48,387 nucleotides of DNA, taken from Thermoanaerobaculia bacterium (GTDB lineage: Bacteria; Acidobacteriota; Thermoanaerobaculia; Gp7-AA8). The position numbers were made by a program. Positions 3,001-6,000 of the stretch are shown one piece after another (within the stretch, counting starts at the first letter, position 1; every line of letters begins with the position of its first letter). The DNA lies in assembly GCA_050745405.1 (NCBI GenBank), contig JBOGJQ010000162.1, forward strand, positions 1 to 48,387, in the 5' to 3' direction.

Positions 3001-6000
3001 GTTTCGTCTGGAGCTCGGAGAGGGATGGCTGGAGATGCCTCTATCTGTACGATCTCGACGGCCGGCTGATTCGACCGCTGACTCCGGATGGGATCGAGGT
3101 GAACGCTCTCGAGGCCGTGGACGAGGAGGGCGGCTGGGTCTATTACACCGCGCGGACCGACCGCGCTCGCCCCTATGACGTGACGTTGCTGAGAGTCTCG
3201 CTCGAGGGTGGAGCACCGATAACGCTCGTGCGCGGCCCGGCACTCCATGTCGAGTTCGACGCCGCGCGCGCGTTCTTCTGGACGATGCGCAGCGGCGTCG
3301 ACGTTCCGCCGGTGCTGGAGCTCCGCCGCGCCGACGGCTTGCTGGTCCGCGAGATCTGGTCCGGCGCGTCGATCGCGGAGAGGACGGGATGGAGCCCGCC
3401 CGAGACGATCCGCGCCCTCGCGGCGGACGGGGAGACGGAGCTCGTCGGTCTTCTGTTCAAGCCGCGCGATTTCGATTCGGCTCGGAAATATCCGGTCGTC
3501 GACTCGCTGTATCTCGGGCCGCAGACGAGACACGTTCCCGCTTCGATGATGGATCGGAGTTACGGCGCGAGCCAGGCGCTGGCCGACCTCGGTTTCGTCG
3601 TGCTCATGGTCGACGGCCGCGGGACGCCGGGGCGGGGGAAGGCGTTTCAGGACGCGTTCTTCGGCCGGATCGGGCAGGAGGAGATCGCCGATCATGCTGC
3701 CGTGTTGCGGCAGCTCGCCACCGACCGCCCCTGGATGGACCTGGACCGCGTCGGCGCGTTCGGCCACTCGTGGGGCGGGTACGGCGCGCTCCGCGCGCTG
3801 CTGCTCGAGCCCGAGCTGTACGACGTGGCGGTGGCGAGCGCGCCGGGCGTCGACCTCGAGCGGTTCCGCGTCGCGATCGAGCCCTTCATGGGATGCCTTC
3901 CCGCGGAGTGCCCCGAGGCGTACGAGCGCGGCTCGAACACGCGGCTCGCGGAGCGCCTCGAAGGAAAACTCCTCCTGCTGCACGGCACGAGCGACGATGA
4001 CGTGCCGTTCGGCGAGATGACGCGGCTCGTCGCCGCGTTCGCGGACGCGGGGAAGCCATACGATCTCGTCGTCTTCCCCGAAAGCCACCACATCATCCAG
4101 GGGCCGTACTGGTGGAAGCGCGTCACCGACTACCTGCAGGAGCACCTCGGCCCTCCGCGCGGAGCGGAACTTTCCGGCCAGGAGATCGCCCCCCGCGGCT
4201 GACGGTTTCTCTGGAGTTTGCCGCCCTCCTGGACCGCAGTGGGTTTCCAACCAAGGGACGGTCCCATGACGGCCTCAGCGCTGGCGCTGGTGGTGCATCT
4301 CGCGGGCTCGGTTCTCGACGGGAAACGACACGTCTGTGCGTTCTTCCACAGCCGGAAAAAGTTGGGGGCCAGGTCTGAGAACCCCAACTTTTCCACGTCC
4401 GGTAGTAAAGTTGGTTTTCCAGACCTGGCCCCAACTTTTTGCCATGACTCGCACCGTCATTCCGATGATCCACGTGCCGAGCGTCGAGGAGACCGCCGCG
4501 TGGTACCGCTCGATCGGATTCGACGTCGTCGACACCGGGTCGGACGGAGCCGACATGGTCTGGGCGATGCTCACGTACGGTGAGAGCGCGATCATGCTCA
4601 GCGCCGGCGGCGAGCGGTCGGACCGCCCCCGGCGCGAGATGGATCTCTACCTCTACACCGACGACGTCGACGCGGAGTTCGAAAAGCTGCGCGAACGCGT
4701 GGAGATCGTCGAGGGACTCCACGACACGTTCTACGGCACGCGCGAGTTCATCATCCGCGACCTCAACCGGTTCTGGATCACCTTCGGCCAGGAGATCGCC
4801 CCGCGCGGCTGACGGTTTCTCTGGAGTTTGCCGCCCTCCTGGATCACAATGGGCCCTCTCCAACGAAGGGAGGGTCCCATGACGGCCTCAGCGCTGGCGC
4901 TGCCGGTGCATCTAGCGGGCTCGGTTCTCGACCGGAAACGCCATGTCTGTGCGTTCTTCCACAGCCGCGACGAGGAATACCGGGTTCTCATGCCGTTCAT
5001 CCTCGAGGGCTTCGAGCGCGGCGACCGCGCCGTCCACATCGTCGATCCCGAGCACCGCGACGCGCATCTGGAGCGGCTGCGCGCGGGCGACGTCGACACG
5101 GATGCGGCCGAGGCCAGGGGCCAGCTCGTCGTTCTCCGTTGGGAGGACGCTTACCTCCGCGGAGGCCACTTCGATCAGAACGCCATGCTGGCTCTGATCG
5201 AGGAGGTCCTGCGCGAAGGGCGGGCGAAGGGATTCCCGTTGACGCGGCTCGTCGCGAACATGGAGTGGGCGCTGGAAGATCGCCCGGGTGTCGCGGACAT
5301 CGTCGAGTACGAGACGCGTCTCAATTTCGTGTTGCCGAGGTACGACGATGCCGTTACGTGAACGTACGACCTCGCCAAGTTTGGCGGGACCGTGGTGATG
5401 GACATCATGCGGACGCACCCGGTGGTCATCATTGGAGGGTTGCTGCAGGAGAACCCGTTCTTCGTCCCTCCGGACCAGATGCTGAGCGAATTGCAGGAAC
5501 GGTAGGCCGCGATGCGCGATCTCGAGACCGATCCGGCGGCGGCCGAGGCGCAGCACCTCCGGCGCTCCCTGCGCGACGTCGTCGCGCTCTCGATGCTGCC
5601 CTCGGTGTGGGCCGGATACGAGCCGCGCCAGATTTGCGAGGACGTCGTCGACGTCGTGGCGCGCCTGCTCGCCGCCGACGGGGTCTGCCTCGGGGCACGC
5701 GTCGATGGCCCGGCGGCGATCGTTCGCCTCGCGCGGCCCGACGACGCGGCGAGCGACCGCGCGCTCCGTCGCGCCGTGAAGGGTACGGCGGGGGAGGCCG
5801 GCGGCGTTCTCACTCCCGAGGGAACGGATCTCCGGATCCTGACCTGCGGCCTCTCGTTCGACTCGACCGAGCGGCTCCTGGTCGCCTCCCGCCGTCCCGA
5901 TTTTCCGACCGAGTCGGAGAAGCTCCTCGTGCGCATCGCGGCGAATCAGGCCTCGACGTGGCTCGAGTGGAAGCGCGCGCAGAGCGCGTTGGCGGACGAG

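Follow-up and report, generated by a model that had tools for sequence, protein, structure and literature searches.

A gene for a stand-alone MEDS sensor protein in a Thermoanaerobaculia bacterium (Acidobacteriota) carries a single in-frame TGA which, judging from the comparison of the gene with its relatives, is very probably a selenocysteine (Sec) codon and not damage. The gene is located on contig JBOGJQ010000162.1 of assembly GCA_050745405.1, the 48,387 nucleotides of which (positions 1 to 48,387, forward strand) were analysed in full and are referred to as the window. The MEDS domain was defined in 2005 and its sensing mechanism has gone unexplained since; selenoproteins, on the other side of the pairing, are to our knowledge almost all redox enzymes. 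The explanation that best accounts for the observations overall, and which we regard as likely, is that codon 161 of this MEDS sensor is decoded as Sec, that TGA is the ancestral state, and that the glycine codon GGA present at this position in a sister strain reflects the loss of Sec.

According to this explanation the gene (4879-5505) would give rise to a stand-alone MEDS sensor protein of 208 residues, and the UGA at codon 161 (5359-5361) would be read as Sec by the standard bacterial route. By analogy with known bacterial Sec decoding, SelB together with Sec-tRNA(Sec) would bind a stem-loop directly 3' of the UGA (5362-5396, loop AGUU), and Sec would substitute for the one cysteine that is conserved across the MEDS family.

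An in-frame TGA at a conserved cysteine

The sequence-only reading that preceded this analysis had described a frame running from 4879 to 5505 with one TGA, placed opposite a conserved Cys that it assigned to a C-x-Y-(D/N) motif. Translation of the + strand confirms the frame, which is interrupted solely by the TGA at 5359-5361, within ...LPRYDDAVT*TYDLAKFGGTVVMDIMRTHP... (in a longer excerpt, ...NFVLPRYDDAVT*TYDLAKFGGTVVMDIMRTHPVVIIGG...). The motif likewise proved correct. When the stop is bridged, the product matches the Pfam MEDS model PF14417 over its entire length (model 1-161/161, E 1.4e-42, 145.7 bits, with a gathering score of 29.8 bits), and the match spans the TGA. In the column of the stop, Cys is found in 117 of 119 full-length homologs and Gly in the remaining two, while the Tyr after it is invariant and the Asp of the C-x-Y-D motif nearly so. 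The equivalent of Cys161 is also kept in remote MEDS proteins, including EtnR2 of Mycolicibacterium NBB4 and those of Natrinema, Streptomyces and Xanthobacter Py2, so that the column is a genuine one, with conservation running deep in the family. A further cysteine, Cys24, is invariant in the 119 homologs and 98% conserved in the genes with TGA at codon 161 (hereafter Sec-type, as opposed to Cys-type), and is less universal than Cys161 among the remote proteins. Two adjacent cysteines occupy positions 160 and 161 in 48 of the 119 Cys-type proteins and about a quarter of the Sec-type genes read Cys-Sec (CU) at the same place, both of which fit a putative thiol- or selenol-based site. In the public annotation the window's gene is represented by a 160-aa product (P0002), and the 100% identical sister protein (P0001) by a full-length product of 208 aa. 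A PDB sequence search with the MEDS protein gave no relevant match.

The TGA is not peculiar to the window. A degenerate DNA pattern built around the codon (Y-x-D-x-[VL]-x-TGA-x-Y-[DN]-L-x-x-F-(9 codons)-R-T-H-P, ~51 bits), which has a chance expectation of zero in the window and no match in window shuffles, finds at least 120 metagenome contigs and 110 loci in ~105 GTDB species-representative genomes; in all, at least 230 independent contigs from metagenomes and genomes have TGA at exactly codon 161. Going by record titles, 73 of the 110 genome loci belong to Acidobacteriota and 12 to Planctomycetota, with fewer in Rokubacteria, Binatia, Betaproteobacteria, Gemmatimonadota, Armatimonadota, Chloroflexota, Dormibacterota, Eisenbacteria and Acidimicrobiia, and the UGA-type orthologs extend over more than ten phylum-level groups. 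All loci that match the pattern stem from metagenome-assembled genomes (MAGs) or soil-type metagenomes. The frame is open on both sides of the TGA in every locus, and 47-60 strongly conserved codons follow it except in a few loci at contig ends and in one outlier of 264 codons. Sec-type and Cys-type sequences are interspersed, in that the nearest neighbour of 12 Cys-type proteins is Sec-type, with identities reaching 91.5%; this is the usual picture of dynamic exchange between Sec and Cys.

A scan of viral contigs with the Cys-type pattern gave no match. Within the window, a scan for further in-frame TGAs based on G+C content at third codon positions (GC3) returned the MEDS gene only, together with a trivial artefact at 4810. 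Two Sec-type copies per MAG are present in five MAGs (L155/L207, L153/L165, L189/L195, L177/L219 and L146/L224), and a 12.9-kb contig (L019) harbours a Sec-type MEDS gene (2779-2823, - strand) along with a Cys-type paralog on the same strand.

Downstream of the UGA, the 46 codons of the window differ from those of the 12 nearest Sec-type relatives by 170 synonymous as against 85 non-synonymous codon differences, an excess which indicates that the segment is under purifying selection and is translated. Elsewhere in the window TGA closes 9 of 19 long GC3-rich open reading frames (ORFs); TGA is therefore an ordinary stop elsewhere in the genome, and a genome-wide reassignment of the codon was rejected.

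The closest relatives of the gene bear on the age of the TGA. Contig L001, which belongs to a different assembly (GCA_975254775.1), is 99.4% identical to the window contig over 7.8 kb, and the sole difference within the MEDS gene is T in the window versus G in L001 at 5359 (L001 position 5379), which turns the codon into GGA (Gly). The Logan assembly of run SRR27067779 (L256) matches window positions 4814-9214 with one mismatch and contains the TGA, and all 24 sequences that rank next after the identical sister, at 75-85% identity and chiefly from MAGs of Thermoanaerobaculia and other Acidobacteriota, have TGA at this codon. TGC or TGT occurs at codon 161 in no close-range relative, and the best Cys-type protein among 5.8 billion database proteins is 75% identical to that of the window. 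Because the 24 nearest relatives beyond the identical sister and the independent assembly all agree, the comparison identifies TGA as ancestral in the window's lineage and GGA as derived in the sister strain, where it is most simply a recent loss of Sec. The second Gly-type MEDS protein (P0071) has a Sec-type nearest neighbour at 89.5% identity. Since both Gly-type proteins (100% and 89.5%) thus adjoin Sec-type sequences, it would seem that the conversion of UGA to GGA, a one-step loss of Sec unlike the usual Sec-to-Cys change, has occurred more than once, the DNA codon being known for one of the two (GGA in L001).

The stem-loop 3' of the UGA

The sequence-only reading had also singled out a short hairpin at 5371-5388, at roughly the distance from the UGA at which a bacterial selenocysteine insertion sequence (SECIS) would sit. 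The hairpin is present as named, with the sequence CUCGCCA-AGUU-UGGCGGG (5371-5388), and turns out to be the conserved core of a stem-loop that covaries among the TGA-type genes. In the window the stem-loop folds at -15.5 kcal/mol over 48 nt, the upper stem comprises 7 bp and the UGA-to-loop spacing is 16 nt. These values lie within all four published criteria for bacterial SECIS (bSECIS) elements; the underlying model (PMC13188914 Fig. 2A) has an apical loop of 3-9 nt, an upper stem of 4-16 bp, a G in the first two loop positions, a distance of 16-37 nt from UGA to loop and a minimum free energy (MFE) of -7.5 kcal/mol or below.

The conservation is most apparent at synonymous sites. Across 193 unique Sec-type genes aligned by codon, the entropy at four-fold synonymous sites elsewhere in the gene is 0.9-1.9 bits, and codons +5 and +6 contain the gene's only invariant synonymous sites: Ala at +5 is GCC in 174/174 and Lys at +6 is AAG in 143/143. 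Phe at +7 is TTT in 171/193, while the remaining Phe columns favour TTC and TTT makes up 13% of the Phe codons of the whole window. Gly at +8 never changes in the protein products of the Sec-type genes, 192/193 of which encode it by GGC or GGT; in Cys-type proteins this residue varies.

The pairing itself, with offsets counted from the U of UGA, falls into two classes. Class A (152 sequences) has five upper pairs (offsets 14-18 with 23-27) that are ~100% paired, the loop AGUU and a 7-bp lower helix that is mostly paired; in the second class (57 sequences) the register is shifted by one. G20, U21 and U22 are invariant across the 209 unique sequences. In the CAC/CGC/CUC subclass of the second class the pair 16-26 is A-U in 18 sequences, G-C in 3, U-G in 1 and U-A in 1, and since these four pair types occur without any mismatch, a change of amino acid at codon +5 is offset at the wobble position of the Gly codon +8. 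Position 14 is G only where position 28 is C (57 G-C versus 119 C-G). Overall 84.7% of cells are paired (150 sequences), compared with 29-55% after the partners have been displaced by 1-3 columns, and none of 500 shuffles reaches the observed pairing or covariation score. As for the Cys-type controls, eight of nine unique DNA sequences lack the conserved hairpin nucleotides; the nine have AAA or AAG and TTC or TTT, and their codons +5 and +8 vary. One Cys-type MEDS gene (P0040; L240 3516-3563) has kept the complete hairpin (GAT CTC GCC AAG TTT GGC GGG) and is probably a recent Sec-to-Cys conversion. The earlier suggestion of a Sec/Cys pair with a short SECIS is hence supported on three counts, namely the conserved Cys column, the recurrence of the TGA and the covarying hairpin.

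Selenocysteine machinery and alternative explanations

Several observations weigh against decoding of the codon as Sec. ARAGORN searches for tRNA-Sec and tblastn searches with E. coli SelA, SelB and SelD detected neither the tRNA nor selA, selB or selD, whether in the 48 kb of the window or in the 252 related loci (1.5 Mb; 253 sequences with the window). The closest strain has Gly at codon 161, which makes the residue dispensable, at least transiently. The hairpin of the window is thermodynamically ordinary (z = -0.48 versus shuffles of 5359-5430, in DNA of 68% GC), and the generic bSECIS criteria are loose, being passed by 19% of all TGA triplets in the GC-rich window; by MFE folding they pass 157 of the 209 Sec-type sequences (75%). 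It is because of the unremarkable z-score and this background that the evidence that the hairpin matters is comparative, between genes, and does not reside in the single sequence. Rfam yields no SECIS match at gathering score over the window and, at E <= 10 over 5300-5520, only chance-level matches and no credible RNA family, a null of little weight since the Rfam SECIS models span few bacterial types. Lastly, the sensing chemistry considered below and the proximity of Cys24 to Sec161 are drawn from fold topology and analogy.

Two candidates for parts of the machinery were considered and rejected. ARAGORN called a 95-nt tRNA-Ala(cgc) at window positions 42051-42145, conceivably a tRNA-Sec-like molecule or allo-tRNA, which is a false positive: its acceptor and T arms are poor, no Rfam tRNA is found there even at E <= 10, and it sits within a 517-codon GC3-rich ORF (41759-43310). 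A weak SelA-like match in L100 (2305-3564, - strand) is not SelA; it belongs to a SelA-family pyridoxal phosphate-dependent enzyme with a Tat-type signal peptide, encoded 7.5 kb from a Sec-type MEDS gene.

Published work bears on whether such machinery is to be expected. Sec-type enzymes together with selABCD have been reported in MAGs of Acidobacteriota, Armatimonadota, Chloroflexota and Methylomirabilota (PMC13582414), and an Acidobacteriota isolate is listed as Sec-utilising (PMC12013277). Because these reports concern the phyla involved here, a Sec trait in the window's organism is plausible by analogy.

It is conceivable, if unlikely, that the TGA is ancestral and no longer functional in this strain, the Sec trait having been lost or being on its way out, in which case a 160-residue product would be made and the GGA of the sister would represent a rescue. 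Such a decay would agree with the solitary T/G difference from the MEDS gene of L001, with the Sec-type nearest neighbour of the second Gly-type protein and with the machinery unseen in the window. However, the SECIS nucleotides of the window are intact, the rare TTT codon included, the 46 downstream codons show a 2:1 synonymous excess (though mostly of older history), and 48 kb is far too short for concluding that the machinery is absent. A different possibility arises from the fact that a conserved hairpin and downstream frame testify to recoding and not to the identity of the inserted amino acid: the UGA might be recoded to Cys via tRNA(ReC)/SelB*, or the hairpin might stimulate near-cognate read-through that inserts Cys or Trp. 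Systems with selC* (tRNA-ReC) are indeed reported in MAGs of overlapping phyla (PMC13582414). We nevertheless deem non-Sec recoding improbable, given that the standard Sec signature consists of just this, a UGA where the homologs have an invariant Cys and, after it, a SelB-type hairpin with canonical spacing and G-U in its loop, and that selABCD and Sec use are documented in the MAGs and the isolate mentioned above.

The sequence-only reading had entertained two more mundane alternatives, a fresh lesion of TGC or TGT to TGA and a base-call error, both of which are very improbable in view of the relatives and of the independent assembly. The sense GGA in an otherwise identical sister gene and the 160-aa product of the public annotation are what a fresh nonsense mutation in a Cys- or Gly-encoding gene, and hence a pseudogene, would leave behind. 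Yet the nearest relatives share the TGA (all 24 beyond the identical sister), the sole relative that differs has GGA and none at close range has TGC or TGT; with at least 230 contigs bearing TGA at the very same codon, SECIS-type codons in place and a downstream frame that is intact and constrained, this account is very hard to sustain. An error of base calling or assembly at the A or T of this codon might be entertained, as the contig comes from a MAG, but is barely credible when the independent Logan assembly retains the TGA and relatives from many other samples carry it.

Fold, partner kinase and proposed sensing

An AlphaFold model of the MEDS protein (pLDDT 89.6, pTM 0.87) adopts a KaiC/RecA-like fold. 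Of the structures in the PDB it most resembles FlaH, the KaiC CI domain and RecA-family ATPases (Foldseek probability 1.00, TM-score 0.5-0.6). These ATPases have the central parallel sheet in common with the model; unlike them, MEDS is without a Walker A motif after strand 1 (FHSRDEEY), sequence identity is 12-18%, and the nucleotide site of KaiC/RecA is replaced by conserved His22, Cys24, Glu129, Trp130, Sec/Cys161, Tyr163, Asp164 and R-T-H-P. Residue 161 is part of strand 158-164 and Cys24 of strand 22-27, each three residues from the C-terminal end of its strand. Since in the ASCE/RecA topology the strand after Walker B adjoins strand 1, the two residues are probably neighbours at the ligand-binding edge of the sheet.

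The gene for the partner, a hybrid histidine kinase, begins 7 nt past the MEDS stop (Table 1). The arrangement is a recurrent one: out of 182 genes that follow a Sec-type MEDS gene, 177 group with the window kinase in one similarity cluster and have its N-terminal region in common. Cys-type orthologs whose downstream gene is annotated by Pfam are followed in three of four cases by a GAF-HisKA-HATPase-REC kinase and in the fourth by a PAS-sigma54 activator; the downstream partner in L240 is such an activator and not a histidine kinase. The N-terminal ~165 aa of the window kinase (5512-6006) have no Pfam match and contain the motif RRPDFPTE.ERL.LRVAANQA. Its conservation extends to the genes that follow nearly all Sec-type MEDS genes, and the region probably serves as the receiving module for the MEDS signal.

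Table 1. Coordinates of the MEDS gene, its predicted recoding elements and the partner gene in the window
Feature	Position	Strand	Remarks
MEDS-domain gene	4879..5505	+	208 sense codons if the UGA is decoded; TAG stop 5503-5505
Cys24 codon, strand beta-1 (HVCAFF)	4948..4950	+	candidate resolving partner of Sec161
Predicted Sec codon, in-frame UGA (residue 161)	5359..5361	+	occupies the invariant Cys of the C-x-Y-D motif
Bacterial SECIS-like stem-loop	5362..5396	+	folding, comparative conservation, covariation
Lower helix of the stem-loop	5362-5368 / 5391-5396	+	
Upper stem of the stem-loop	5371-5377 / 5382-5388	+	
Apical loop AGUU	5378-5381	+	
Partner gene, hybrid histidine kinase	5512..8007	+	Pfam: PAS, GAF, HisKA, HATPase_c and REC after the N-terminal ~165 aa

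How the protein might sense can be outlined from its fold and from analogy. Sec161 would be positioned on a central strand of a fold without P-loop, at the sheet's carboxy edge, which is the ligand-binding side in folds of this kind, and its selenol could act as a reactive sensing nucleophile or as a redox centre. The signal, an electrophile or an oxidant, might alkylate or oxidise the selenol, or a selenenylsulfide might form with Cys24, and the change would then be relayed to the co-transcribed histidine kinase via the conserved N-terminal domain of the latter. As Sec/Cys pairs mark catalytic or redox-active residues, the pair at codon 161 is taken, on the sequence comparison, to identify the functional residue of the MEDS domain. 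A more general proposal is that MEDS is a covalent or redox sensor, in which the single Cys conserved throughout the family, replaced by Sec in hundreds of soil bacteria, reacts with the signal, through alkylation by small electrophiles or oxidation to a selenenylsulfide with Cys24, and switches the attached histidine kinase; we put this forward tentatively, and would sooner bet against it than on it.

A direct repeat of ~180 nt, 93% identical between its copies (window 4175-4354 and 4785-4967), flanks a glyoxalase-family gene (4444-4812). The first copy is a duplicate of the 3' end of the peptidase gene together with the intergenic stretch and the initial ~90 nt of the MEDS gene, and leaves a truncated MEDS start at 4266-4353; after it comes an imperfect inverted repeat of higher AT content (4354-4384 / 4413-4443). 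The same repeat layout around the glyoxalase-family gene is present in L001, and the bracketed gene looks like an insertion by duplication or recombination. L001 lacks, at its position 2972, 31 nt corresponding to window 2922-2952 inside the DPP-IV/S9 peptidase gene (1965-4202), which splits its peptidase gene into two ORFs, either a frameshift pseudogene or an assembly difference.

Relation to known systems and implications

The archetype of bacterial selenoprotein genes is E. coli fdhF, with SelA, SelB, SelC and SelD as the decoding machinery. The MEDS gene resembles genes of this type in having its UGA opposite a Cys of the homologs and, just 3' of the UGA and inside the ORF, a stem-loop with G-U in a small apical loop; its 16-nt spacing is at the lower end of the published 16-37 nt, and its Sec and Cys forms are interspersed as well. 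Unlike their products, MEDS is not an oxidoreductase and has no thioredoxin fold, but is the ligand-sensing domain of a two-component pathway; decoding by SelB is proposed here by analogy. Other non-classical selenoproteins, predicted to be regulatory or metal-binding, are already catalogued, among them the FmdB-family UxxU protein and CU-motif proteins such as SaoL, HgcA and MbdU, with which the Sec-type MEDS genes that read CU have this motif in common. Their folds and families are unrelated to MEDS, however, and they include no sensor domain that works with a histidine kinase.

Among characterised MEDS regulators, EtnR2/EtnR1 of Mycolicibacterium chubuense NBB4 and DcmR of Methylobacterium likewise combine a stand-alone MEDS with an adjacent GAF-containing signalling partner, and EtnR2 has Cys at both positions equivalent to 24 and 161. 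These regulators differ from the window system in having Cys and not Sec, in having a GAF-HTH (helix-turn-helix) activator as partner, or the MEDS domain fused to an HTH, and no hybrid histidine kinase, and in being only ~34% identical to the window protein. Their known inducers, ethylene oxide and dichloromethane, are both thiol-reactive electrophiles. EtnR2, of all relatives the best characterised, and the GAF-HTH protein EtnR1 respond to ethylene oxide at 0.2 uM (bioRxiv 10.1101/2024.02.19.581074), and DcmR responds to dichloromethane (PMC11507031).

The expectation of the sequence-only reading that a selenoprotein sensor domain would be new is borne out so far as catalogues and databases go. 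The 119 prokaryotic selenoprotein families and subfamilies catalogued in 2026 (PMC13188914) do not include MEDS (PF14417), the BSepDB and deep-Sep papers do not mention it in their main text, NCBIfam has no selenoprotein model that matches the MEDS protein, and a search of the available literature returned no paper joining MEDS or DcmR with selenocysteine or selenoproteins. Despite the existence of Sec-type genes at 75-85% identity, no full-length Sec-type product is found among the best protein-database hits; the only Sec-type product among them is the window's own 160-aa fragment, and for this reason Sec-type MEDS genes are probably called as fragments in public annotation. Sec-type MEDS is apparently an undescribed selenoprotein family that is widespread in soil bacteria and unusual in being a sensor. 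The decoding mechanism is a standard one and the MEDS domain is known; it is their combination that appears to be new.

Well over 200 such genes in public MAGs, mostly from abundant soil Acidobacteriota, are likely mis-annotated. Selenoproteome surveys have so far centred on marine and anaerobic systems, and a family model would correct the annotation and add a soil-specific entry to them. The pair at residue 161 suggests a covalent or redox sensing model for the MEDS domain, and a Sec sensor coupled to a histidine kinase would carry selenium biology into signal transduction. If the proposed sensing is true, MEDS would be the first selenoprotein to serve as the input module of a two-component system, and the same chemistry would account for the detection of dichloromethane and epoxides by DcmR and EtnR2-type regulators.

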